64,000 nt of DNA from Flavobacteriales bacterium (GCA_016703005.1 JADJCX010000033.1:297767-361766); one strand, 5' to 3'; numbered from the stretch's first letter, positions 28,663 to 53,722 are shown. Made by a program: numbers and translations. Notes: generated by a model from the sequence alone, not told the origin.

Positions 28663-29927
28663 TCTGGATCGTCCTGTCGGTTGTCCTGTTGCTCTCAACC
28701 GTGGGACTGGGTTTCGCCTATCGCCGTGCGCAAGAGACCACGGCAACCTTGACGAACGACTTGAGCGCTTACGCGCAGGTCATCGAGGGCAGCAACGATG
28801 CAGTGCTGGTGATCGATTTCGTTGATGGAAGGATCCTGCGGACGAATACCAGGGCCGCTGGTTTGCTCGGTCACACCAAGGAACGGCTGTTGGCCCTTAC
28901 CGTATTCGATCTGCACGCGCCGGAGCATTTGGCACAAAGCGCTATGCGTATTGCCGATGCATGGGAGAAGAAGGGGACCGTGTATTCGGACATTCCGTTC
29001 CGTTCCGCAACAGGCGACACCATTGCCGTTGAGTGCAGTACCACCGTTACCTATCATGGAGAGCGACCGGCCGTGGTGCTCTTCGCACGCGACATACGGG
29101 AGCGGTTGCAGTTGCAGCGCGCGGTGGAGGAGCAACAGCACCTGGTGCGCAGCAAGAGCGACGAGGTGCTCGCGAGCCTCCGGTATGCCAGCACGATCCA
29201 GTATGCCTTGCTTCCCACCGAAAATGCACTGCGCTCCTTGTTCAGCGATGCGTTCGTCCTGTTCAAACCGCGCGACATTGTCAGTGGTGATTTCCACTGG
29301 ACAGCGCGCGTTGGTGACACCGTACTTGTCGCGGTCGCCGACTGCACAGGCCACGGTGTCCCGGGCGCATTCCTCAGCGTGATCGGCAATTCACTGCTGC
29401 GCAGCATCGTGCTCGAACAAGGCATTACCGACCCAGCCTCCGTGCTAGGCCGATTGCGTGAAGGGATCGTTCAGGCTTTGCGCGGACCGGAACAAGGAAC
29501 GCACTTACGCGACGGCATGGACATCGCGTTGGTAGCTGTGGATCTGCGCACGCGTGCGGCCCGTTTCGCCGGTGCCATGAACCCCTTGTATGTGATCCGC
29601 AGGGTAGGGGACGCCCAGGAGCCGATCGAAACCAAAGGCGATCGGCTGCCGATCGGGTTCATCGATGGAATGGCCAAAGCGTTCACCACCCATTCAATGC
29701 AGTTGCTCCCGGGCGACAACCTGTACATGTTCTCCGATGGTTTTGCGGATCAGTTCGGCGGCGCCGAAGGCAAGAAGATCAAACCGGTCGGGTTCAAGCG
29801 CCTGTTGCTGGAAACCAGCAACCACGACATGGCGCAACAGCGGTCGGCCTTGGACAAGGCCTTCAGCGATTGGAAGATCGACCACGACCAAGTGGACGAT
29901 GTTCTGCTGGTAGGATTACAGGTCTGA
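28641..29927 (+). CDS. PAS-domain PP2C-type serine phosphatase (SpoIIE/RsbU family)
   Basis: TM helix, a PAS-like region and a PP2C/SpoIIE core (SGDFHW, DCTGHGV, DGFADQ). Confidence 0.8.
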   Translation: MGAETGLIWIVLSVVLLLSTVGLGFAYRRAQETTATLTNDLSAYAQVIEGSNDAVLVIDFVDGRILRTNTRAAGLLGHTKERLLALTVFDLHAPEHLAQSAMRIADAWEKKGTVYSDIPFRSATGDTIAVECSTTVTYHGERPAVVLFARDIRERLQLQRAVEEQQHLVRSKSDEVLASLRYASTIQYALLPTENALRSLFSDAFVLFKPRDIVSGDFHWTARVGDTVLVAVADCTGHGVPGAFLSVIGNSLLRSIVLEQGITDPASVLGRLREGIVQALRGPEQGTHLRDGMDIALVAVDLRTRAARFAGAMNPLYVIRRVGDAQEPIETKGDRLPIGFIDGMAKAFTTHSMQLLPGDNLYMFSDGFADQFGGAEGKKIKPVGFKRLLLETSNHDMAQQRSALDKAFSDWKIDHDQVDDVLLVGLQV

Positions 29928-30854
29928 GGCCCCCGCGCTATCGCGATCGACCACGGCGATCATGGCGGCGATATCGGTCGGTGCGATCCAGTTCCAATCA
30001 TCATTCCTCCGCATCCAGGTCATTTGGCGCTTCGCGAAGTTGCGGGTGTGCTGCTTGGCCATGGCTATGGCCTCCGCAAGCGTGAGCGCGCCATCGAAGT
30101 GCGCGAACAGCTCTTTGTAGCCAACTGTTTGCAGGGCGTTCAACTCGCGATGCGCCAGCAGACCGCGTGCCTCCTCGACAAGTCCTGCTTCGATCATTGC
30201 GTCGAATCGCGCATCGATGCGGGCGTAAAGTTCTGCTCTCGGTAGTTGCATTGCGATCCGCACGGTGTGCCACGGTCGCTTCTTGGCGTGTCCAATGCGC
30301 TGCGCGCTGAAGGGCCTGCCGCTGGCCAGACAAACCTCCAACGCACGGATGACACGGTGCGGATTGTGGGTGTCGATGCGCTCAATGATCGCCGGATCCA
30401 ATTGTGACAACCGTTCCAGCAACGGATCGAGCCCATGTTTGCGGAACCGGTCCTGGAGCTCAGTGCGGATGCGGTTATCGCCAAGCGGCATCGGATCCAA
30501 CCCGTTCACCACCGCATCGAGGTATAAGCCGCTTCCTCCGACCAGCACTGCGCTACCGTATTTGCTCAGCAGCTCCTCGATCACCGGAACCGACACGCGT
30601 TCATAAGCGCCCGCGCTCATGGAACCCGTAATTGCAAGGTTTCCGATGAAGTGGTGGGGCACCTGCTGCAGCTCATCAGCGCTTGGAAGCGCGGCACCAA
30701 TGCGCAGTGCATGGTAGAACTGCCGTGCATCGGCGCTTACCACTTCGGTCTTGAAGTGCTGTGCCAGTGCAACAGCAGCTGACGTTTTGCCGCTGGCGGT
30801 CGGGCCGCCGATCACGATGAGCGTTCCCAGCAGGCGCTCGTTGGCGGACATCAC
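29916..30854 (-). CDS. miaA: tRNA dimethylallyltransferase
   Basis: P-loop IGGPTASGKTS and MiaA core motifs. Confidence 0.9.
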   Translation of the reverse strand: MMSANERLLGTLIVIGGPTASGKTSAAVALAQHFKTEVVSADARQFYHALRIGAALPSADELQQVPHHFIGNLAITGSMSAGAYERVSVPVIEELLSKYGSAVLVGGSGLYLDAVVNGLDPMPLGDNRIRTELQDRFRKHGLDPLLERLSQLDPAIIERIDTHNPHRVIRALEVCLASGRPFSAQRIGHAKKRPWHTVRIAMQLPRAELYARIDARFDAMIEAGLVEEARGLLAHRELNALQTVGYKELFAHFDGALTLAEAIAMAKQHTRNFAKRQMTWMRRNDDWNWIAPTDIAAMIAVVDRDSAGASDL

Positions 30855-31568: not shown

Positions 31569-33008
31569 TCAGTGGCCCGGGTAGGCACTGGAACCTTGCG
31601 CGAGCGTCAGTCCCAAGCGTCGGCCTTCTTCCACCATCAAGCCCCATGCTTGCGCCCGGTCGTTCTGGATCTTGCCGTCCAGGATCGCGTCCTTGATCAC
31701 CGTCTTAATGTCGCCGATGAACTTGCACGGGGGGATGTTGAAGGCCGCCATGATATCCTGCCCGGTGATCGGTGGTTGGAAGTTGCGCACGCGGTCTTTC
31801 TCCTCCACTTCGGCCAGTTTGCGCATCACCAACTCGTAGTTGCGCAGGTAGCGTTCCTTCTTCTTCTCGTTCTTGCTGGTGATATCGGCTTGGCACAGGA
31901 TCATCAGCGCGTCGATGTCGTCGCCGGCGTCGAAGAGCAATCGGCGTATGGCACTGTCCGTAACGATCTCCTTGGTGAGGGCGATGGGTCGCAGGTGGAG
32001 CGCAACGAGTTTCTGGACGAAGCGCATCTGATCATCGAGCGGAAGCTTCAACCGCCGGAAGATGGTGGGCACCATGCGCGCGCCTTTGTCCTCGTGCCCG
32101 TGGAAAGTCCAGCCGTGCTCCGCATCGAACCGTTTGGTCTTCGGCTTGGCGATATCGTGCAGGATCGCAGCCCAGCGCAACCACAGGTCGTTGCTCTTCG
32201 CGCACACGTTGTCGAGCACCTGCAACGTGTGGTAGAAGTTGTCCTTGTGCCCGATGCCGAACTTCTCCTCGGCGCCTTGCAGCTCAAGGAATTCGGGGAA
32301 GAAGCGCACCAGCAGCCCGCTGTCCCGAAGGAGCAGGAATCCGGTGCTTGGTATGGGGCAGAGAATGATCTTGTTCAGTTCCGTGTGGATGCGTTCGGCG
32401 CTGATGATGTCGAGCCGGTCCGCGTTCCTGATGATCGCCTCGAAACTCTCGCGCTCGATGGTGAAGCCGAGCTGCGTCGCGAAACGCACCGCGCGCATCA
32501 TGCGCAACGGGTCGTCGCTGTAGGTAATGTTCGGGTCGAGCGGTGTGCGTAGGATGCCACGCTCCAGATCGAGTATGCCACCGAAGGGATCCACCAAAGC
32601 GCCGGTGCTGCCAGCGTTGAGCGAGATGGCCAATGCATTGATGGTGAAGTCCCTACGCTCTTGGTCGTCGCGTATGGTGCCCGGCACCACTTCCGGCTTC
32701 CGGCTGTTGCGGCTATAGCTTTCCTTGCGCGCCCCTACGAATTCCACCTGTACTTCGCCGTGCATGAACATCGCCGTTCCGAAGTTCTTGAACACGTGCA
32801 CCGGGCCTGAGGAAAGTCGTGCCGCCACGGCCTCGGCGAAGGCGATGCCGTCCCCTTCAACAACGAAGTCGATGTCCTTGCAGGGGCGGCCGAGGATGAG
32901 GTCGCGCACGTAACCACCGATGGCGAACGCTGGAATGTCTTGGGCTTTGGCTTCGGCCATCACGGCAGCGAACAGCGGTTGCTTCACGACGCCGTCCAGC
33001 CTGGACAT
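31569..33008 (-). CDS. cca: CCA-adding enzyme / tRNA nucleotidyltransferase with an HD domain
   Basis: PolyA-polymerase head (GGYVRDLILGRPCKDIDFVV) and an HD domain (HGHEDKG). Confidence 0.85.
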   Translation of the reverse strand: MSRLDGVVKQPLFAAVMAEAKAQDIPAFAIGGYVRDLILGRPCKDIDFVVEGDGIAFAEAVAARLSSGPVHVFKNFGTAMFMHGEVQVEFVGARKESYSRNSRKPEVVPGTIRDDQERRDFTINALAISLNAGSTGALVDPFGGILDLERGILRTPLDPNITYSDDPLRMMRAVRFATQLGFTIERESFEAIIRNADRLDIISAERIHTELNKIILCPIPSTGFLLLRDSGLLVRFFPEFLELQGAEEKFGIGHKDNFYHTLQVLDNVCAKSNDLWLRWAAILHDIAKPKTKRFDAEHGWTFHGHEDKGARMVPTIFRRLKLPLDDQMRFVQKLVALHLRPIALTKEIVTDSAIRRLLFDAGDDIDALMILCQADITSKNEKKKERYLRNYELVMRKLAEVEEKDRVRNFQPPITGQDIMAAFNIPPCKFIGDIKTVIKDAILDGKIQNDRAQAWGLMVEEGRRLGLTLAQGSSAYPGH

Positions 33009-33117
33009 ATCGAGGATGAAGGAGTGCTGGCGCTGTTCCACGGATCGGGCGGCGAAAGTAGAGGGCGGGGATCGCCGTGCTGCGAACGCTAGATTCGGAT
33101 CCCCAACCGTATTGTTC

Positions 33118-34506
33118 ATGACCGCGCGCAACCTCTTGATCGGTGTATTCTGTTCCGCAGTGACACTGGCCAATGGCCAGCAGATCACCAACGGCGCGTT
33201 CGAGTCGTGGACGGATCTGGTCGCATACCGGGACATCGACGTGTGGCGGGACGGGAACTACCAGATACCGGGCACTTCCACTACGACCCGCGTGAGTGGC
33301 CAGATCGGCCAATACGCCGCGCGCATGGAAACGGTGACCGCTGGCGGCACTACGACATTCGGCTTCATCGTGCATGGGGAGTTCGCTGGTCAGACCGCTA
33401 CGGAAGGTGTACCGTTCACCACTGCCGTTGATGCCATGGAAGGCTGGTACCGGTACAGCTTAACGCCCGATGATTCGGCCATGATCTATTTGCTGTTATG
33501 GAACAATGGGGTGGCCTTGGATACCATCGTTCATTTGATCGGTGGTACCCAATCGCAATGGACGGCATTCAGCCTGCCGGTGAACGGTGGCGTGCCCGTT
33601 ACTCCGGACAGTGTTGTGGTAGCTGTTACCAGCAGCAACCCGTTCGCGCTTACCGGCATGGCGGCTGGTTCGTGGATCGAAGTGGATGATCTGCAACTCA
33701 CCAGTACCACCGTCCTTAACCCTGACCTTCTCCCGAACAACGGCATGGAGGATTGGACGGACATCACCACAGAGGAACCCGATGGGTGGACAACCTTCAA
33801 TCCGCTGCTGGCACAATTGGGCTATACGCCTGTCACCAAAAGCACCATGGCCCACGCGGGGACGTATTCCATCCGCATGGAAACGATCGACCTCGGCGGC
33901 GATACGCTGCCGGGCATCATTACCAATGGCGATCTGTTCGGTGCCGGGCTGTTCTCCGGTATCCCATACAACGACACTCCTTCGTTGATGACCGCGTTCT
34001 ACCGATACGCACCCGTTGGTACGGACACGGCGGGCGTGGCCGCGCTCTTCATCAAGAACGGGTTGCTATTGGAGCAAGCCTACTTGCAGATCACCAGTGC
34101 TGCGGCGGTATGGACCTTCACCGGTGCGCCTATCCTGCTGTTCCAAGAACCCGATACACTGGTGATCCAGATTTACGCGGGATCGAATCCAGGATCGGTG
34201 CTGTACTTGGATGACTTGGCGTTCTCGGGCATCAGCACGGGCATTTCAACCGCCACCATGAGCGCCATACGCGCATGGCCGCAGCCCGCAACGGATGTGT
34301 TGAATGTTTCACTTGGCGATATCGGAACGACCGGCACCACCACACGCGTGCTGGATAGAATGGGTCGCGTGGTGCTTGAGGGCAGTGTTGGCAGTAGAGC
34401 AGCAGGACAGCTTGTTCTGCCCATGCAAGGGCTCACCTCCGGCCACTACATACTTGAGGTGCGCAGCGGTGACCGCGTTGAGCGCTTGCCGTTCGTGAAA
34501 GGCTGA
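33118..34506 (+). CDS. Secreted protein with a T9SS type A C-terminal sorting domain
   Basis: Signal peptide, two internally repeated about 150-aa modules and a Por-secretion tail (HYILEVRSGDRVERLPFVKG). Confidence 0.65.
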   Translation: MTARNLLIGVFCSAVTLANGQQITNGAFESWTDLVAYRDIDVWRDGNYQIPGTSTTTRVSGQIGQYAARMETVTAGGTTTFGFIVHGEFAGQTATEGVPFTTAVDAMEGWYRYSLTPDDSAMIYLLLWNNGVALDTIVHLIGGTQSQWTAFSLPVNGGVPVTPDSVVVAVTSSNPFALTGMAAGSWIEVDDLQLTSTTVLNPDLLPNNGMEDWTDITTEEPDGWTTFNPLLAQLGYTPVTKSTMAHAGTYSIRMETIDLGGDTLPGIITNGDLFGAGLFSGIPYNDTPSLMTAFYRYAPVGTDTAGVAALFIKNGLLLEQAYLQITSAAAVWTFTGAPILLFQEPDTLVIQIYAGSNPGSVLYLDDLAFSGISTGISTATMSAIRAWPQPATDVLNVSLGDIGTTGTTTRVLDRMGRVVLEGSVGSRAAGQLVLPMQGLTSGHYILEVRSGDRVERLPFVKG

Positions 34507-45239: not shown

Positions 45240-45304
45240 TGTTCCAAAGGCTTTCGAGGGGAACCAAGGACACTAACCCACACTAGGGTTGAAGAGCCAG
45301 ATGT

Positions 45305-45589
45305 TCAAACCCCAGCAACTTTCGAGGATAAAAGCTCTCGTACTCCCATCGAGGTAAGTTTCTTTTGCCGGTTTGAAACTGCTCCAAGTACTGTTTCTAG
45401 GTCTTTCGGTGAATCAATGCCCAGCAACACTTTGACCCTATCGAAGTACGCCTTCGACACCGATCGAGCAAACACTTCAAATGCTCCACCGTAGTGTCCG
45501 ATGAATATCAGTGTGTCGGGCCACCAGCCCGAATAAGCATCCTTCGTATGCATTTCACTCCTCATGAAGAGGATAAAATCGGCTTGCAT
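45305..45589 (-). CDS. Hypothetical protein, possibly a remnant, in a low-GC segment
   Basis: 94 aa with no recognisable domain. Lies in AT-richer DNA (~48% GC) immediately beside the IS element. Confidence 0.3.
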   Translation of the reverse strand: MQADFILFMRSEMHTKDAYSGWWPDTLIFIGHYGGAFEVFARSVSKAYFDRVKVLLGIDSPKDLETVLGAVSNRQKKLTSMGVRELLSSKVAGV

Positions 45590-45653
45590 CAGGAACTGGA
45601 ATTCTATTCCTGAACTCGCTGCCCGTGTAAGCTTCCCCTAAAGTCGGGCCAGC

Positions 45654-46850
45654 GATAACTGGAGGTCTCAGGAGCATGTGGGTTAGAGTTGGATGGGCAC
45701 TGGCGGCCGGTAACCGAGTGCTTTGTGAGGTCGAAGATGGTTGTAATCGTACATCCATTCGGTGGTGCGCAAGCGAACCTCATCGAGGGTACGGAAGACG
45801 TATGCGCTGAGCACATCACGGCGCAGGGTTCCGTTGAGCCGTTCGATGTAAGCGTTTTGCGTGGGCTTGCCCGGTTGGATGAAGGTGAGGGTGATCTTTT
45901 GGAGCTTGCACCAGTGATCGAGTTTGGCGCTGATGAACTCCGGTCCATTGTCCACGCGGATCATGGTCGGTAGCGGACGATGTTCCTTGATCTGTTCAAG
46001 GGCACGTATCACGCGCTGAGCAGGCAGTGAGGTGTCCACCTCGATGGCCAGTACCTCGCGGTTGTAGTCGTCCAGGATATTGAGCAGTCGGTACGTGCGA
46101 CCGTCCCAGAGGCTGTCGTGCATGAAGTCGATGCTCCACACCTGATCAGGGGCTTGTGGTTGGAACAACGCCTGCTTCACGCGGGCAGGCAGGCGCTTCT
46201 TGGCCCTGCGCCGGATGTTCAGGCCCATGGCCGTGTACACCCGGTACACGCGCTTGAAGTTCCAGCGTTGACCCGTCAAACGCATGCGGTGATGGCTCTG
46301 CCACACGCCGATGGCCGGATGCCGCTGGGTGAGTTCGCCCAAGGCTTGGATGATCGCCGTGTCATCGGGTGGGTGCTTGAGGTACTGCGCGGTACTGCGA
46401 GCAAGGCCCACACAACGGCAAGCCTGCCGCTGTGTAAGTCCGTGTTCATTGCTCATCGCCTGCACGATTTCGCGCTTCTCGTCAGGCGCCCCACTTCTTT
46501 TCCACCACCTGCTTCAATGCATCGTGCATCATGCTCAGCTCGGCATACATGCGTTTGAGGCGTCCGTTCTCCTCCTGCAGTTCCTTCATCTGCTTGAGTT
46601 GGCTGGCGTCCAGACCACCGTACTTGGCCTTCCACTGGTAGAACGTGGCGTTGCTGATGCCGTGCTCGCGACAGATGTCGGCGACCTTGGCTCCAGCGTC
46701 ATGCTGCTTGAGCATCGAGACGATCTGATGCTCGGTGAACTTGCTTTTCCTCATGGCTACTACTTGTGTTGAAAGTAGCCCCTGACCGGTCAACGGGATT
46801 TTTCCCCAGGCCTGATGGGCCGGGAAAAATCCCGTTGACCTCCACTATCA
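45654..46850 (-). mobile_element. IS3-family insertion sequence (about 1.2 kb). orfA runs 46482-46754 and orfB (DDE integrase core) 45683-46465.
   Basis: orfA has an HTH region (MRKSKFTEHQIVSMLKQHDAGAKVADICREHGISNATFYQWKAKYGG). orfB has the rve/DDE core (...DNGPEFIS...[12 protein letters not shown]...). Imperfect terminal IRs about GATA(A)nTGGAGGTC at both ends. orfB overlaps orfA by about 33 nt but in the +1 rather than the usual -1 frame. Confidence 0.8.
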
Positions 46851-46872
46851 CATGGCCGAAGATTGGGGAAGC

Positions 46873-47973
46873 TTACACCGATCCTTTGCATATCTGCCCG
46901 CATAGAAAGTCGCTTGGCCTGGAGTCTTTGATTTCGATGCCGAAGGACTGCATCCTTCGATAAATGGTTTCGAAACCCACCATCGAAGGTTTGCCGTATT
47001 CAGCATTCACAGGTATATAGAATGGCTTGGTGAGAACATCGGCGGCTTCGCTGAAACGCTCATGCTTTATAAGGACCGCCAAGGAGAAAAGAAACAACTC
47101 ATGAATGAGAAATCTGTAGTTGTCAAACTCCCAGTCCTGCCAAGAATTCAAATTGGGTGACTTGTCCATATACGGAATGATGTCTTCAAAGAACCGATGA
47201 AGGCGATTAATGATTGCCTCACTCGGGTGATACTGGGCGATAGCCACGAAGAGATGAAGCATCTCGTTTCGTTGCGGAAGAAAGTCTCCAATGCTCGCTA
47301 CTACTGCCTCACCGAATTCTCCAGCCGGGTTCACTAATCTGATTCGCTCAAGGTTCTTGGCAAACGTTGTGCAGTACTCATCAAAGGCACCTTCAGCGTA
47401 GCTTTTATGGTCCCTTAGACCTTCCAGGCACCTTTTGAACAATAGAGAGGTGCCCAATGATGCATGCTCGCCCTCGTTCAAGAACGTGGGCATGGTACCT
47501 ATTTCGGGCTTCACATAAAGGGGTTTGTCAAAAATCCATCGGAGCAGCCGTTCAAGGTTGTCCGAGTACCGGTCCAATTCACTGAGGTCGATGTAGATTC
47601 TGGCCTTGTAGTATGTAGGAAGAAAGGGTTTGTCATTTGCGTCTTTATGGCTCACAACAGCAACGAACTTGTTTTGGTCTTGTCTGTCGTAAACTTCCTT
47701 AGAGATGATTTGCGTTTCAGTTCCAACACCACCCGATCGACCGTCCGCCTTACTCGCGTATTTCTCATCGCAGATAATAACCACCTTCTTAATGTCTGGA
47801 TTGGTGACCATTTGCTCCATGAAGGCCACCGCATCATGCCCTTCCCTCAAATCCCATTTGTCCAGAATCACATCCACTCCAGCCGACCGCAATTGAGTTG
47901 CAAGATCAATGACCCATTGTTCGTGATCCGGGCTGGACCAGCTGTATGAGATGAAGAGTTTTGGGGCGGACAT
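46873..47973 (-). CDS. TIR-domain protein with an uncharacterised ~230-aa C-terminal domain
   Basis: N-terminal TIR-like block KLFISYSWSSPDHEQWVIDLATQLRSAGVDVILDKWDLREGHDAVAFMEQMVTNPDIKKVVIICDEKYASKA. Low-GC (~45%) coding sequence. Start trimmed to MSAPKLF. Confidence 0.6.
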   Translation of the reverse strand: MSAPKLFISYSWSSPDHEQWVIDLATQLRSAGVDVILDKWDLREGHDAVAFMEQMVTNPDIKKVVIICDEKYASKADGRSGGVGTETQIISKEVYDRQDQNKFVAVVSHKDANDKPFLPTYYKARIYIDLSELDRYSDNLERLLRWIFDKPLYVKPEIGTMPTFLNEGEHASLGTSLLFKRCLEGLRDHKSYAEGAFDEYCTTFAKNLERIRLVNPAGEFGEAVVASIGDFLPQRNEMLHLFVAIAQYHPSEAIINRLHRFFEDIIPYMDKSPNLNSWQDWEFDNYRFLIHELFLFSLAVLIKHERFSEAADVLTKPFYIPVNAEYGKPSMVGFETIYRRMQSFGIEIKDSRPSDFLCGQICKGSV

Positions 47974-48142
47974 CCGATTATGAGTATGAGGCAAAGATGG
48001 CTCCCACTTGTCGCGTGATGGGCTGACGCTCGCCTTCGACTCGCTTAATTGCAAGTCAGCATTGCAGCGATTGGCTACATTCGCATCATGCGAGCTATGA
48101 CGCGGCGAATATGGATATGTGGCTAAGCCACTATCTCATTAT

Positions 48143-48216
48143 GGCCCCGTAGCTCAGTCGGTCAGAGCATCTGCCTTATACGCAGCCGGTCGCAGGTTCA
48201 AGTCCTGCCGGGGCTA
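48143..48216 (+). tRNA. tRNA with anticodon UAU (Ile-AUA decoding) on an ileX-like (tRNA-Ile2) backbone
   Basis: Cloverleaf: acceptor GGCCCCG/CGGGGCT, D-arm GCTCAGTCGGTCAGAGC, anticodon stem-loop TCTGC-CTTATAC-GCAGC, T-arm GCAGGTTCAAGTCCTGC, discriminator A, no encoded CCA. Near-identical architecture to E. coli ileX except the anticodon is TAT instead of CAT. Confidence 0.75.
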
Positions 48217-48348
48217 CTGATATTCCATCTCACCTTCATCACATGCACCCGCTCGCGCATTGCAGACGCTCGCCTTCGGCGAGTGTCCGAGCGGTGTACC
48301 AGCATGTGGTAAAGATCGGATACAAGATGAACTCTGGATATTAGAGCC

Positions 48349-48585
48349 ATGAAGACTCAATGGGCATACTATGATTTTAGGACGGAGATTGTCACGGACA
48401 ACGTAGGTGGCTCCGTCGCCGTTCAATTGCATAGGACAGGCACATCGGGAGAAGAAGTGTTGGCAGCGGCGGTAACCTACTGGGACGCGGATGGTCAGTT
48501 CCAGGTTAGTGTTTATGTCAAGCAAGTGCCAGTGACCATTCTTGAAGTAGTCATTGCTGAGGCTCGGGCCGCTGTTCCAACCTAG
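48349..48585 (+). CDS. Hypothetical small protein
   Basis: 78-aa ORF with no recognisable domain. Confidence 0.25.
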   Translation: MKTQWAYYDFRTEIVTDNVGGSVAVQLHRTGTSGEEVLAAAVTYWDADGQFQVSVYVKQVPVTILEVVIAEARAAVPT

Positions 48586-48665
48586 ATGCCGGCTTGCGCC
48601 GTTCGGGTTACTGCGCACCGATCGCGTGAATCGCTGACGTCCCGACAAGTCCGGATGTCCTTCGG

Positions 48666-49058: not shown

Positions 49059-49195
49059 TGGGCTTGGGCGTCGATCAAATCTAGCTTGGCGCTGCGTCTA
49101 TAAGTAAGGAACGCGCGCGCGGCTTACGATGGAGAGGTACAAGGGTTTCACCTTTCATTCTCCTTGATCTGCTGGCCACGAGTAGGGATATTTCG

Positions 49196-49448
49196 GAAGC
49201 TGATAGAGACATGTTCAGCGCAGACATGGGCATGTTGAAGTTGAACAGAGACCTGTTGGCCACGAACAGGGACATGATCGCCGCTGAAAGAGACATGTCG
49301 GCGGCCGATAGAGACATGTTAGCCGCTGAAAGAGGCATGATAGCGGCTGACAGAGACATGTTAGCCGCTGAAAGAGGCATGTTAGCGGCCGACAGAGACA
49401 TGTTAGCCGCTGACAAGCATGTTGATCGCTGACATGTACATGTCAGCC
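49196..49448. repeat. Tandem array of about 11-12 21-bp repeats (alternating GCCGCTGAAAGAGGCATGTTA and GCGGCCGACAGAGACATGTTA) ending in a perfect 20-bp palindrome GCTGACATGTACATGTCAGC
   Basis: Direct reading of 49196-49448. The 21-bp period equals two helical turns. Every unit contains an ACATGT-like core. Both strands stay open in several frames, as expected for a period that is a multiple of 3. Confidence 0.85.
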
Positions 49449-49584
49449 GTAAAAAGAGGCGTACGGAAGTCAAGCTTTTACTCTGACGGAGGTGTTTCCT
49501 CGCATCCGATCGCAGGTCAGCAGCCTTCGGTGTGTGTCATTCAGTCAAGGGCCTGTGGCCCGCCGCATGCATTAGCTTGAACCC

Positions 49585-50244
49585 GTGTTCCCTGCCACCC
49601 TAAATATCACTGTCTTCTGCGGCGCATTGCTGGTCGCTTGCGTCGTTGCTGCCCAGCCGCCGAAAGAGCCGGGGTCGTTCAGGCCACCCGACCTGGTGGA
49701 GATCGTGAAGCTGGATAAGACCATCAAGCTCGACATCCGCTACGCCACGAAGAACAATTTCCTGGGGCGACCGGTGTACAAACATGCACGGGCCTTTTTG
49801 CAGCGCCCGGCCGCCGAGGCACTGGTGCGCGTGCACCAAGCGCTGAAGGCGCAGGGCTTCGGGCTGCTGGTCTTCGATGGCTACCGGCCGTGGAGCGTTA
49901 CCAAGGTTTTTTGGGACAGCACACCCAACGACAAGAAGAGCTACGTGGCCGACCCCGCAGTAGGCTCGCGGCACAACCGCGGATGCGCGGTGGACCTCAC
50001 CTTGTTCGACCTCAAGACAGGTCGCGCTGTAACGATGCCCAGCGAATACGACGAGATGACGGAACGGTCGCATGCGGACCATTCCGGTGCAACGCCGGAG
50101 GCCACGCGCCTGCGCGATCTGCTCATCGCGGCCATGCAAGCGCAAGGCTTCACGGTCTTCGCCACCGAGTGGTGGCACTTCGACTACAAGGACTGGAAGG
50201 AGTATGCGATCCTGGATGTTCCGTTCAAGGAGATCGGGAAGTAG
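49585..50244 (+). CDS. ddpX: D-alanyl-D-alanine dipeptidase (M15 family, VanX/DdpX-like), secreted
   Basis: Signal peptide and M15D motifs (...SRHNRGCAVDLTLFD...EWWHFDY). Confidence 0.8.
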   Translation: MFPATLNITVFCGALLVACVVAAQPPKEPGSFRPPDLVEIVKLDKTIKLDIRYATKNNFLGRPVYKHARAFLQRPAAEALVRVHQALKAQGFGLLVFDGYRPWSVTKVFWDSTPNDKKSYVADPAVGSRHNRGCAVDLTLFDLKTGRAVTMPSEYDEMTERSHADHSGATPEATRLRDLLIAAMQAQGFTVFATEWWHFDYKDWKEYAILDVPFKEIGK

Positions 50245-50336
50245 ATGTCATTGGAATGTGAGTCGGAACCGCATAGGCCAAGAGCCGGGAGGCAACGCGC
50301 GTTCCGTCCTGCGTCTACTTTCGGCATTCTACCCCC

Positions 50337-51623
50337 ATGCGTGCACATACCCGTTCCTTCCTGCTATCCTGCGCTCTCGCATTCGCCCCGCTGGCACAGG
50401 CGCAGGACTTCTTCTGGGACTTCGAAGGAGCGAACGGCCTCGATGGATGGCACATGTATGATGGCAGTTCGATGCAGACGGGACCAGGTGCGGCCAGTGC
50501 GACCAGCGTGCGTTTGCAGAGCGGACCGCCCCTTAACAGCGGATCGTTCGATTCGGCCATGTTCTTCTACCATGTTGTGCCGTACGACCCTAACGTCTTT
50601 TACAACATTACAGTTGGGTGCATGACACTCGACCCCGATGTGTACCCGATGGTATACCTCGGTTGGCTCGATACGCTGACCCAGCCCGCATTCCTGAACG
50701 CCGCGAACACCAGCATGACCGTTTCGACGGGCCCCTCCAGCTGGGCCATCGCCGAATTGCTGGATGAGTATCCCATCACCGGAACGGGCGCGTACTGCAT
50801 CATCATTTCGGCTTCATCGTTGATCCCGGGCGAAGCCCTGTTCGACAACATTTCCGTTGAGATGATACCGCAGGGCTCGGCCATGCTCCGCGCGCCAAGG
50901 CTGTTCCTGGGCGGCAACTTCGATAGCGGCATCAACCGGATGGGCCACCATCTCAACGACCTGGGATTAGTGCCGGCCACGGAGCCATACACGGCCATGG
51001 GTTACCAGCAGATCGGCGGTGGTGGGGAGATGTGCACACCCTTTGTGATGGAACCGAGCTTCAACTTCAACGCCGTGGATTGGGTGCGCCTCGAATTGCG
51101 TTCGGCCTTGGACCCGACCGTGGTGGTGGCCACGCGGCAGCTCATGCTCACTTCACTCGGTCTTACGTGCGGCCCCAATGGGCAACTGAACCTGCACTTC
51201 GATCTGCCGGCCGGCAACTATTACGTGGCCGTGCGCCACCGGAACCATCTGGGTGCGATGACCGCCACGCCGGTGGCGCTGCCAAGTCCATTTCCATGGT
51301 GGGCGGTGGATTTCCGCTCGCCTTCGCTTGCCACATGGGGCAGCAATGCGCGCAAGGCGGTGGGGGCGAACATGGTGCTATGGGAAGGCGATGTCACAGG
51401 CGACCACTTGCTCAAGTATGTGGGTATGAACAACGACCGCGACCCCATTCTCGTGGCCATTGGTGCGTTGCCCATCGCTACCCTCACCGGTCAGTACCGC
51501 AAAGAGGATGTGACCATCGATGTCGTCGTGAAGTATGTCGGGGTGAACAACGACCGTGACCCCATCCTTGTGAATATCGGCGGTAATACGCCCAATGCCG
51601 TGCGCGTGGAGCAGGTGCCATAG
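50337..51623 (+). CDS. Secreted protein, paralog A of a novel family, with C-terminal dockerin-like Ca-binding repeats
   Basis: Signal peptide. Shares long blocks with 53834-55138 (FEGANGL.GW, EPYTAMGY.Q.GGGGE, VDWVR.ELRS..DPT..VATRQ, NYY.AVRHRNHLG.MTA.PV). Repeats of the form GD.TGD..LKYVG.NNDRDPILV.IG. Confidence 0.6.
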   Translation: MRAHTRSFLLSCALAFAPLAQAQDFFWDFEGANGLDGWHMYDGSSMQTGPGAASATSVRLQSGPPLNSGSFDSAMFFYHVVPYDPNVFYNITVGCMTLDPDVYPMVYLGWLDTLTQPAFLNAANTSMTVSTGPSSWAIAELLDEYPITGTGAYCIIISASSLIPGEALFDNISVEMIPQGSAMLRAPRLFLGGNFDSGINRMGHHLNDLGLVPATEPYTAMGYQQIGGGGEMCTPFVMEPSFNFNAVDWVRLELRSALDPTVVVATRQLMLTSLGLTCGPNGQLNLHFDLPAGNYYVAVRHRNHLGAMTATPVALPSPFPWWAVDFRSPSLATWGSNARKAVGANMVLWEGDVTGDHLLKYVGMNNDRDPILVAIGALPIATLTGQYRKEDVTIDVVVKYVGVNNDRDPILVNIGGNTPNAVRVEQVP

Positions 51624-51717
51624 GGGGTTACGAACTGGCGCGGGCCTTTCTAAGCGTCCATCGCAGAGTCGCTTGTGCGCGAGTCCTACGCATGAGGCCG
51701 CAGGGGCTCGCAGGCCG

Positions 51718-51820
51718 AGGGCTTCACCGTCTTCGCCACCGAGTGGTGGCACTTCGACCACAAGGACGGGAAGGAGTATGCGATCTTCGATGTGGAGTTC
51801 GGCAGGATCAAGGGTCAGTA
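51718..51820 (+). pseudogene. Fragment (~100 bp) of the ddpX 3' end
   Basis: ...GFTVFATEWWHFDHKDGKEYAIFDVEFGRIKGQ* is about 80% identical in DNA to 50140-50244. Confidence 0.7.
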
Positions 51821-51830
51821 GTTCCCCCGC

Positions 51831-53387
51831 CTATTCCTTCACTATGCGCAGGCAGGTCAAACCTTCATTGGAAGTCACCTGCAGGACGTAGGGTCCTGAA
51901 GGGAGAATACTCAGGTCAACAAGGGAGCCGCCAACGCGAAAGTGCCCAGTTTGCACTGTCGCACCCAAGGTGTTGATGACCACATAGACTGCGTTACTGC
52001 CTATGTCGCCGGTGATCCTGAAGACGCCGTTGCTCGGGTTCGGTGTGGCAGTGAGTCCCGGTGCTGGCAGTGATGGGTCCACCGCTGTGCTGAAATCCTC
52101 CTCACCGAGTTCAACAAGCCATACATCGCGCACGCCTATGAAGTCCTGGACGTCGCCATCATTCGATTGTGCATGCCCGGCCATCATGAAGTGGCCGTTG
52201 GGAAGTGCGACGATCGCCGAGCCGCCGTCAAAGTCGGTGCCGCCCATTGTTTTCTGCCACAGGAGATCCCCGAACGGGTCCAGACGTACAACCCAAGCAT
52301 CGGACCAGCCTTGGTTGCTGGTCACGTCGCCATCGGCAGAGCGTGTGTTACCGGTGAAAATGAACCCACCGTCATAGAGCTGGTCCATGTCGATCGGGGT
52401 GTCGAACAGAGAGCCACCGATACAATGCTGCCACTGCAGGTTGCCCAGTGAGTCCAGCTTCACGATCCAAGCGTCCTCATCGCCGTGGAGGCCGCTCACG
52501 TCGCCATCATTGGACGAGGTTCTCGCGGCGATCACATAGCCACCATCCGAGGTGAGCGCCAGATCGAACGGGTTTTCGGACCACGTGCCGCCAAAGGACT
52601 GCTCCCAGAGGATCGCACCGACGCTGTCCACCTTCACCAACCACACATCGTTGGCGCCGAGGTTCTGGGAAACGTCGCCATCGGAGGACAAAGAACTGGC
52701 CGCGAAGACATAGCCGCCGTCCATGGTCCTGGTGATGGACCAACCCACTTCGGCCAAGCTGCCGCCGTAGCACCGCTGCCATTCCAACCCGCCAGTGCTG
52801 TCGAGCTTCACCACCCATGCGTCGTCCGCACCGTGATTGCCGCTCACGTCGCCGTCGTTCGAGGTGGTGCGCGCTATCAGTATGCAGCCACCGTCCGGCG
52901 TGCCTTCAATGCACGCCACGGTCTCGTTGCTCGATCCACCGAGGTCGATGTTCCACTGTACGTTCCCACCGCTATCGAGCTTTACCACCCCGATGTCCGA
53001 GTAAAGCACCGGATACGGCGTGATGTACCCGGTAAGGAAGTAACCACCGTCAGCGGTTGGTGCGAGACCATGGGCATCATCCCAACTAACACCGCCCAGC
53101 GTTTGCTGCCATAGCAGCGTTCCGGTGCTATCGATCTTGAATACCCACATGTCGTGATCGCCGTTCTGCCCCGAAATGTCGCCATCGACCGAGGTTGTGA
53201 ACCCGGAGACAACGAAGCCGTTGTCAGCCGTGCGCAGGAGGTTGCGCCCCATCTCGTCATGCGATCCTCCATAGGTCTCCTGCCATACAATGGGCGGTGC
53301 TATCTGGCCGATGATGGTGCCGCGCAACACAAGAACCGCAACAGGGATGATCGTCCAACGAAAGAAGCGGGCGACTGAGCTTTGCAT
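51831..53387 (-). CDS. Secreted beta-propeller-repeat protein with a T9SS type A C-terminal sorting domain
   Basis: About 8 repeats of about 50 aa (DGGY...G.T.S.DGDVSGNHG.DDAWVVKLDS.G.L.WQ...GG) and a Por-secretion tail (...GPYVLQVTSNEGLTCLRIVKE). Confidence 0.7.
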   Translation of the reverse strand: MQSSVARFFRWTIIPVAVLVLRGTIIGQIAPPIVWQETYGGSHDEMGRNLLRTADNGFVVSGFTTSVDGDISGQNGDHDMWVFKIDSTGTLLWQQTLGGVSWDDAHGLAPTADGGYFLTGYITPYPVLYSDIGVVKLDSGGNVQWNIDLGGSSNETVACIEGTPDGGCILIARTTSNDGDVSGNHGADDAWVVKLDSTGGLEWQRCYGGSLAEVGWSITRTMDGGYVFAASSLSSDGDVSQNLGANDVWLVKVDSVGAILWEQSFGGTWSENPFDLALTSDGGYVIAARTSSNDGDVSGLHGDEDAWIVKLDSLGNLQWQHCIGGSLFDTPIDMDQLYDGGFIFTGNTRSADGDVTSNQGWSDAWVVRLDPFGDLLWQKTMGGTDFDGGSAIVALPNGHFMMAGHAQSNDGDVQDFIGVRDVWLVELGEEDFSTAVDPSLPAPGLTATPNPSNGVFRITGDIGSNAVYVVINTLGATVQTGHFRVGGSLVDLSILPSGPYVLQVTSNEGLTCLRIVKE

Positions 53388-53439
53388 GATGCAATGTAAA
53401 CCTCCTTCCATAGGCCCAAAGCGCTCGAGGCGGAACAGT

Positions 53440-53722
53440 TGTCCGCGCGGCACAACCGCGGCTGCGCGGTGGATCTCACACTCTTCGACCTCAAGACCGG
53501 TCAGGCCGTGACGATGCCAGCGAACACGATGAGATGAACGAACGGTCCTACCCGACCTATTCAGGTGCTGCTCCGGAAGCCACGCGCATGCGCGATCTGC
53601 TGATCGCGGCGATGCAGGCGGAGGGCTTCACGGTCTTCGCCACCGAGTGGTGGCACTTCGACTATAAGGACTGGAAGGAGTATGCGATCTTGGATCTACC
53701 GTTCAAGGAGATCGGGAAGTAG
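53440..53722 (+). pseudogene. Fragment (~280 bp) of the ddpX 3' half, frameshifted
   Basis: Aligns to ddpX from ...HNRGCAVDLTLFDLKTG to the stop. A 1-nt deletion lies near 53518. The last 62 codons remain open as ORF 53534-53722. Confidence 0.75.

Follow-up and report, generated by a model that had tools for sequence, protein, structure and literature searches.

A tRNA-Ile(UAU) gene within a low-GC accessory block of a Flavobacteriales genome

How would AUA be read in an uncultured member of the Flavobacteriales that carries a tRNA-Ile gene with a UAU anticodon, and where might such a gene have come from? The first-pass annotation of this locus had recognized the anticodon on a scaffold like that of the lysidine-dependent tRNA-Ile2(CAU), had placed the gene at the edge of an acquired island, and had proposed that it would change how AUA is read or could compensate for foreign codon usage. 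The class of tRNA in question, tRNA-Ile(UAU), is named tRNA-Ile3 in tRNAscan-SE 2.0. We examined the gene within a window of 64 kb (the whole stretch of DNA analyzed, 64,000 nucleotides), in which its position is as follows:

48143-48216, plus strand: tRNA-Ile(UAU) gene, 74 nt, without encoded CCA (ARAGORN, Rfam RF00005, minimum-free-energy fold, sequence)
48175-48181, plus strand: anticodon loop CUUAUAC, that is C32 U33 U34 A35 U36 A37 C38 (sequence)

The 74 nt of this interval, GGCCCCGTAGCTCAGTCGGTCAGAGCATCTGCCTTATACGCAGCCGGTCGCAGGTTCAAGTCCTGCCGGGGCTA, are a real tRNA-Ile gene with the uncommon UAU anticodon. The one tRNA that ARAGORN called in all 64 kb is a tRNA-Ile (anticodon tat) at 48143-48217 (+). 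Rfam RF00005 matched 48143-48216 (+) over its full length (model positions 1-71 of 71; E = 2.3e-13), scoring 70.5 bits where the gathering threshold is 29. The cloverleaf is also the minimum-free-energy fold of the 74 nt, and U27xC43 is the sole non-standard pair flagged in the Infernal alignment. The anticodon TAT (U34 A35 U36) occupies 48177-48179 in a 7-nt loop, with U33 before it and a purine at position 37 (A37 at 48180, followed by C38 at 48181), and none of the tools (ARAGORN, Rfam, folding) gave an alternative register. Thus, the UAU anticodon is upheld in its normal register, by the ARAGORN call as well as by Rfam and by folding. Position 1:72 is a G.U pair, and the gene has A73, C4:G69, C5:G68 and U12:A23; CCA is absent from it, as the 3' end reads ...GGGGCTA followed by CTG.

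Among 5,426 E. coli genomes, the best matches are annotated tRNA-Ile genes with CAT (76% identity). The best chromosomal one is ileX, beside rpoD-mug; another belongs to a lambdoid prophage, where the antiterminator and the holin flank it. The window tRNA and ileX have in common the GGCCCC acceptor, C4:G69, C5:G68, U12:A23 and A73, and the T arm, GGTCGC(A/T)GGTTCAAGTCC(T/A)GC, is nearly whole in both. In contrast, the two differ at 27:43 (U x C in the window tRNA, G.U in ileX), at 29:41 (U:A versus C:G), at 31:39 (C:G versus A:U), at 38 (C versus A) and at 1:72 (G.U versus G:C); moreover, ileX has C34 where the window tRNA has T, a D loop that is one base shorter, and an encoded CCA. The first-pass description of the cloverleaf as almost superimposable on tRNA-Ile2(CAU) is therefore borne out to the extent that the acceptor, D and T arms are Ile2-like, but does not hold for the anticodon arm or for 1:72.

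The acceptor stem, in which GGCCCCG pairs with CGGGGCT, has the C4:G69 and C5:G68 pairs of Ile2(CAU), and Ikeuchi and colleagues are said to have identified these pairs in 2005 as TilS determinants in E. coli. The anticodon loop departs from that of the lysidine-dependent Ile2(CAU), having T at 48177 rather than C34 and lacking the form CUCAUAA with A38. The E. coli IleRS reportedly recognizes A35, U36, A37, A38, A73, C4:G69, U12:A23 and C29:G41 (a set ascribed to Nureki and colleagues, 1994). From this set, which may not be that of the host, the window tRNA has A35, U36, A37, A73, C4:G69 and U12:A23, with A38 replaced by C38 and C29:G41 by U29:A41.

These likenesses raise the possibility that we are dealing with an original or duplicated copy of the tRNA-Ile2(CAU) gene native to the host, in which C34 became T through a recent mutation, as a population variant or as an assembly error; the Ile2-like acceptor, D and T arms, in which both presumed TilS determinants are kept, speak for such an origin. 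We compared the window tRNA with two samples of viral tRNAs, obtained with one generic body pattern carrying either TAT (L006-L125) or CAT (L148 onward); each sample had at least 120 matches, was not a census, and was clustered at 85% identity to give 48 clusters. Among the matches listed, A38 was found in all CAU-type sequences (110/110, 48/48 clusters), whereas position 38 in the 48 UAU-type clusters was A in 31, C in 10 and T in 7, such that C38 occurred in 10/48 UAU-type versus 0/48 CAU-type clusters (Fisher p 0.001). Among the same listed matches, G1.U72 was present in 16/48 UAU-type versus 0/48 CAU-type clusters (Fisher p 7e-6) and U72 overall in 27/48 versus 5/48 (Fisher p 3e-6), and C31-G39, which recurs in UAU-type phage tRNAs, was found in 0/48 CAU-type clusters, the CAU class having A31-U39. 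The window tRNA carries all three of the UAU-class marks: C38, C31-G39 and G1.U72. As none of the CAU-type clusters listed has these marks, neither an error in sequencing nor a recent replacement of C34 by T in a canonical Ile2 gene is likely; because the differences from that class are several, several independent changes would have been needed, not one.

Measures of the whole body gave a less clear answer. Excluding position 34 as well as the nearest family, we obtained a position-weight log-odds of -0.3 bits for the window tRNA, intermediate between the class means of +10.6 (UAU) and -10.7 (CAU) among the matches listed; this intermediate score is a point in favor of a mutated Ile2. The best identity to it among the matches listed was 61/73 for UAU-type and 58/73 for CAU-type viral tRNAs. 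As judged from sequence, the scaffold thus appears to be mixed, with Ile2-like acceptor and T arms, and with marks in the anticodon arm and at position 72 that, among the matches listed, were seen in the UAU type alone. C or U at 38 together with U72 might characterize, as a class, the AUA decoders that do not depend on lysidine; possibly, U72 and the non-A38 marks tune IleRS recognition or ribosome binding, or evade anticodon nucleases.

Where do tRNAs of this kind occur? A pattern with the GGCC..GGGCTA acceptor (with fixed loops, unconstrained stems and either T or C at position 34) matched 4 contigs in IMG/VR, 15 contigs in JGI metagenomes and 0 of 185,579 species-representative genomes, while a looser body restricted to TAT matched 2 of the 185,579 (both short MAG contigs with different acceptor stems) and a generic TAT pattern gave at least 120 matches in IMG/VR; all of these tRNA patterns are exact-match filters, by which diverged orthologues would be missed. 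The rarity that the first-pass annotation had ascribed to a genomic UAU isoacceptor is in agreement with the 0 and 2 species genomes of these scans and with the literature, in which tRNA-Ile(UAU) is rare in bacterial genomes (19 species in tRNADB-CE) (PMC4013482) and replaces Ile2 in 17 genomes (PMC8450103). No case of a Bacteroidota tRNA-Ile(TAT) is named in the literature examined.

The 19 matches of the acceptor family all have TAT, all encode CCA and are identical to the window gene at 59-62 of 74 positions, and the nearest relatives found by pattern scan come exclusively from marine phage-like contigs. In the four IMG/VR contigs (L016, L051, L095, L124), the family tRNA is in clusters of the form Ile(TAT)-Leu(TAA)-Arg(TCT)/Lys(TTT), and L095 also has PHROG-matching genes. 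The company of Leu(TAA), Arg(TCT) and Lys(TTT) is the usual make-up of those phage tRNA arrays that serve A/U-ending codons. Like the window gene, these phage tRNAs, those of the 15 metagenome contigs included, have the GGCC..GGGCTA acceptor with G1.U72, A73, TAT, G39, in most cases a non-A38 base, and the T arm GGTC(A/G)CAGGTTCAAGTCCTG. They encode CCA, which the window gene does not; the window gene is also solitary, carries C38 and C31, and lies in a neighborhood free of phage genes.

Overall identity was rejected as a guide to origin: about 82% identity to the window tRNA is also reached by annotated phage tRNA-Lys, tRNA-Arg and tRNA-Met, the log-odds score is intermediate, and the diagnostic positions alone are informative. 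The pattern scan of viral contigs yielded no CAT version of the G1.U72 scaffold. We note that the human gut phage scaffold MT835553 (L145, 5001-5076) has a CAT tRNA, called Met by ARAGORN, with the GGCC..GGGCTA acceptor (G1.U72, A73) and 81% identity to the window tRNA. Thus, the GGCC..GGGCTA scaffold exists with both anticodons in phage DNA, and this tRNA is a further point for a change at position 34. Against that origin are the existence of a whole family of TAT tRNAs on this acceptor and the foreign, low-GC DNA in which the gene lies (see below), in addition to the three class marks. Together, these observations make a mutated host Ile2 very improbable.

Mobile tRNA-Ile genes are also found among the E. 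coli matches. In the lambdoid prophage of E. coli FAM21845 (L143, 1501-1809), tRNA-Ile(CAT), tRNA-Thr and tRNA-Gly follow one another between the antiterminator and the holin. The tRNA-Ile of the antiterminator-lysis gene interval of lambdoid prophages resembles the window gene in that it is a mobile, extra decoder of the rare codon AUA, as the window gene would be; it differs in that it keeps CAT, and thus needs the TilS of its host, while the window gene has TAT.

The window gene lies in a short accessory block with the following parts:

45240-48665, no strand: low-GC accessory block of about 3.4 kb, composed of the bSEFIR pseudogene with an IS3 element, the tRNA gene and a unique tail of 450 nt (synteny, GC)
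45286-45627, minus strand: bSEFIR C-terminal remnant, residues 366-478, with an extra frameshift near 45387 (tblastn; weak PADLOC match of a 94-aa ORF)
45628-46877, minus strand: IS3-family insertion sequence inside the bSEFIR gene (Pfam rve, rve_3 and HTH_Tnp_1; inverted repeats)
46881-47973, minus strand: N-terminal part of a bSEFIR (SEFIR/TIR) anti-phage defence gene, residues 1-365 of a 478-aa family, 48% GC

Comparison by blastn with the loci of relatives (L001-L005) bounds this block by the conserved E1 dehydrogenase gene and by a cupin gene common to the relatives. GC content is 48% in bSEFIR, 50% in the spacer before the tRNA, 54% in the 450 nt after it and 58% in the IS3 element, compared to at least 60% in the flanking host genes and about 59% in the whole window. 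We reached the relatives' loci through their E1 homologues (89% aa identity in L001; about 80% in L003, L004 and L005). E1 and the genes upstream of it are kept in all four of these relatives. In L001 the conserved order extends downstream to the M15 peptidase and the fatty-acid desaturase. The DNA between the synteny anchors differs in every genome compared. No tRNA is present at the syntenic loci of the relatives (L001-L005). The E1 dehydrogenase of the window is 100% identical to a protein from a Flavobacteriales MAG, and all its close homologues come from MAGs of that type. The first 45 kb of the window are taken up by core genes (PFK, PEPCK, RimM, MiaA, a CCA-adding-type nucleotidyltransferase, BatA), and window proteins have type IX secretion-type tails, which fits the Bacteroidota.

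The gene at 46881-47973 matches Pfam SEFIR and TIR_2 and the PADLOC bSEFIR model (E = 6.5e-102). Its full-length homologues are 478 aa long, the best is 66% identical, and the named ones are mostly proteobacterial. When one homologue (P0128) was aligned by tblastn, its residues 1-344 fell at 47973-46942, residues 366-455 at 45625-45356, and the last 34 in another frame. The intervening IS3 element has orfA at 46482-46793 and orfB at 45683-46465, 33-nt imperfect inverted repeats with ends TGTAAGC...GCTTACA, and a 3-bp target duplication, CCG. An intact SEFIR/TIR protein of about 478 aa is thus not encoded: IS3 splits the gene at residue 365/366, and a frameshift follows. Because of this split and frameshift the gene is dead, and we conclude that bSEFIR (45286-47973, minus strand) is a freshly inactivated, horizontally acquired defence gene. 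Furthermore, since its halves join at 365/366 and share the CCG duplication, the assembly across the block is sound.

We found no phage or integration machinery around the tRNA. A search of the window for its 22-nt 3' end, tolerating as many as 3 mismatches, gave no other copy, no integrase domain occurs in the ORFs tested around it, the neighboring ORFs have no PHROG match, and the DNA 3' of it has no match in phage DNA. What the block matched in plasmids was confined to SEFIR genes and to unrelated segments the size of a tRNA. We therefore rejected a tRNA-anchored genomic island, having found neither an integrase nor a repeat of the tRNA 3' end, and likewise a phage tRNA array in the window itself, in which the tRNA is the single one in 64 kb and its neighboring ORFs lack PHROG matches. 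A travelling cassette of bSEFIR plus tRNA is also unsupported: the bSEFIR homologues are at most 66% identical, and the one context examined (L146) has an integrase nearby and no tRNA. The placement of the gene at the edge of an acquired island thus survives in part: the DNA is accessory, low in GC and missing from the syntenic relatives, but it is not a classical island anchored in a tRNA.

Two further features lie beyond the tRNA. A 130-aa ORF (49081-49473, minus strand, 52% GC) is made up nearly entirely of about ten 21-nt (7-residue) tandem repeats and has no Pfam, PHROG or PADLOC match. Farther on, the 3' end (49970-50244) of the M15 (VanX-like) dipeptidase gene recurs as a 275-bp second copy (53448-53722), 3.2 kb downstream of the intact gene, with the same terminal TAG and a 1-nt deletion. 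This arrangement suggests that the M15 gene received, at its 3' end, an insertion of 50245-53447, whose two ORFs include one with a type IX secretion tail, and that the insertion brought or displaced a replacement end of that gene.

If the gene were the only means of reading AUA in this organism, then the lineage, like Mycoplasma mobile, Bifidobacterium and Neorickettsia, would have lost both tilS and tRNA-Ile2(CAU). A decoder is certainly required: in 41 background genes, AUA amounts to 4.2 per 1000 codons and 8.3% of Ile codons and is present in 33 of the 41. Since AUA occurs in so many of these genes, the host must already decode it genome-wide. Replacement of Ile2 and tilS by a UAU tRNA is documented in three clades, those of the three organisms just named (PMC3575796, PMC8450103). 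There is no tilS within the 64 kb window, an observation that carries almost no weight for its loss. Conversely, an essential gene would be unexpected in a low-GC accessory block that is missing at the locus of the closest relative (E1 89% identical), and the species-representative genomes, Flavobacteriales included, had no match to the acceptor pattern and, with the looser one, the 2 short MAG contigs. As far as is known, tilS is near-universal in bacteria. We therefore find it very improbable that the window gene is the sole decoder of AUA.

In M. mobile (PMC3575796) and in Bifidobacterium and Neorickettsia (PMC8450103), a UAU anticodon serves AUA on an Ile2-like body with A37, as the window gene would. 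The difference is one of setting: there the tRNA gene is a core gene that replaces TilS, with a co-adapted IleRS (Arg865 in M. mobile) and ribosome, while the window gene is part of an accessory block. An E. coli-type IleRS charges the UAU anticodon at about 1% of the rate of LAU; a single change of Trp to Arg or Lys in the zinc-binding domain of IleRS raises UAU charging, and the eukaryote-type IleRS of some bacteria may accept UAU (PMC3575796). On E. coli ribosomes the unmodified UAU anticodon also reads AUG, which it does not on M. mobile ribosomes (PMC3575796). A system of the M. mobile type would have an IleRS with Arg or Lys at the equivalent of E. coli W905, or a eukaryote-type IleRS2; the 64 kb window has no ileS.

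Not all bacteria with tRNA-Ile(UAU) have dispensed with TilS: some are without tilS, and others have retained the gene, so that AUA decoding is presumed to be redundant in them (PMC3575796). Lactobacillus casei and plantarum, Cyanothece PCC 7424 and Ferrimonas balearica have an extra tRNA-Ile(TAT) beside tilS (PMC3575796), and the situation of the window gene would be the same, although the coexistence with tilS is shown in those organisms, which belong to other phyla, and is an expectation for the window genome. The proposal that the tRNA would change how AUA is read is overstated: the meaning of AUA would be unchanged and the decoding route alone would differ.

The idea that the tRNA compensates for foreign codon usage has weak support. 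AUA was more frequent in the accessory block than in the background (9.2 versus 4.2 per 1000 codons), but the enrichment is marginal (p = 0.055), and the genes to be served amount to one dead defence gene and an IS. Since the block is too small and too dead, we find a compensating role unconvincing.

Is the gene expressed at all? It might have come with foreign DNA and now be a silent relic, unexpressed or uncharged in its host and decaying like the bSEFIR gene next to it, which has been split by IS3 and frameshifted. The DNA on either side of the tRNA has the following features:

47974-48142, no strand: divergent spacer from the bSEFIR start codon to the tRNA, 169 nt, 50% GC
48025-48038, plus strand: upstream copy of a 14-nt direct repeat, GACGCTCGCCTTCG (exact-copy search of 64 kb)
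48244-48298, plus strand: strong hairpin 28 nt 3' of the tRNA (-32 kcal/mol, z = -3.9)
48265-48278, plus strand: downstream copy of the same repeat, which makes up the 5' arm of the hairpin just named

The 169-nt spacer upstream has neither a sigma-70-like site on the plus strand nor the Bacteroidota motif TAnnTTTG, which would fit silence, although both scans were crude consensus searches. A consensus terminator scan 3' of the tRNA was likewise negative, because the hairpin has no T-run: its core stem (48265-48287), GACGCUCGCC-UUC-GGCGAGUGUC, is not followed by a U-tract. The hairpin is nonetheless strong, which argues against a relic, and it is a possible terminator or processing signal. The two copies of the 14-nt repeat, which bracket the tRNA, are its only exact copies in the 64 kb and extend to 17 nt with one mismatch; a scar of insertion, an att-like core and a shared motif are all conceivable explanations.

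The body of the tRNA can be read both ways. U27xC43, G1.U72 and C38, together with the lack of the C29:G41 and A38 elements of the E. coli IleRS, would fit a tRNA in decay, as would the roughly 1% efficiency with which an E. coli-type IleRS charges UAU (PMC3575796). However, 70.5 bits in Rfam is what a sound tRNA would score, all stems are intact bar one pair, and G1.U72 and C38 recur in UAU-type phage tRNAs (among the matches listed) and so are not random damage. On balance we regard a silent relic as unlikely, if a more serious contender than either a mutated Ile2 or a sole decoder.

Because the gene lacks CCA, a CCA-adding enzyme would be required, and the window has a candidate, probably a host gene:

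31569-33236, minus strand: CCA-adding-type tRNA nucleotidyltransferase with PolyA_pol head, RNA-binding and HD domains (Pfam)

MiaA (IPP transferase; 29916-30854, minus strand) is nearby, separated from the nucleotidyltransferase gene (31569-33236, minus strand) by a PRiA4_ORF3-like gene, and the two are 15-18 kb from the tRNA. Both are core genes, and their nearness to the tRNA is probably a coincidence.

We consider that the window gene is best explained as a horizontally acquired accessory tRNA-Ile(UAU) of the phage-array type, stranded with a decaying bSEFIR gene, through which AUA would be read redundantly if the tRNA is expressed; we give this reading a probability of roughly 60%. Acquisition is indicated because the block is low in GC (48-54%, compared to 59%), the bSEFIR homologues are mostly proteobacterial and the relatives have no tRNA there, and also because the tRNA has the UAU-class marks and its relatives by pattern are in phage clusters and in 0/185,579 species genomes. 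The CCA-adding-type enzyme in the window and the strong hairpin 28 nt downstream support a working tRNA. Counting against this explanation are the lack of phage genes, an integrase or an att-type repeat near the tRNA; the failure of identity to discriminate (about 82% for other phage isotypes) and the intermediate log-odds of -0.3 among the matches listed; and the absence from the window gene of both the CCA that its phage relatives encode and a recognized promoter.

If the accessory tRNA is in use, then its gene would be transcribed and the precursor trimmed, CCA would be added by the host enzyme, and A37 would be converted to t6A, as in all ANN-reading tRNAs. Charging by IleRS would proceed through A35, U36, A37, A73, C4:G69 and U12:A23, and U34 would pair with the third-position A of AUA. 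The tRNA would thereby read AUA without any need for lysidine, redundantly with the TilS/tRNA-Ile2(CAU) system that the host presumably has. The window gene is probably such a redundant, accessory sub-type with a mobile or phage origin, and it may be the first tRNA-Ile(UAU) noted in the Flavobacteriales. We consider it a long shot that the lysidine pathway has been, or is being, abandoned in this lineage, with a captured phage-type tRNA-Ile(UAU) as the working AUA decoder, or that U72 and the non-A38 bases are a functional signature.

The finding is a modest one, as tRNA-Ile(UAU) is an already described rare class that is common in phages, and a solitary accessory gene, with putative expression and beside a dead defence gene, leaves the current understanding unchanged. 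Genomic UAU isoacceptors bypass the otherwise essential TilS, and thus bear on the rewiring of the AUA/AUG split and on the essentiality of TilS. If the lysidine pathway had been dropped in this lineage, it would be the first such case for the Bacteroidota and a live example of the transitional state of Taniguchi et al. (PMC3575796). The contrast between an invariant A38 in CAU-type tRNAs and the frequent C/U38 and U72 of UAU-type tRNAs, among the matches listed, provides a small, testable lead. As a Bacteroidota case whose apparent source is mobile or phage DNA, the window gene is in keeping with the view that bacteria can acquire lysidine-independent AUA decoders from a reservoir of phage tRNA arrays.
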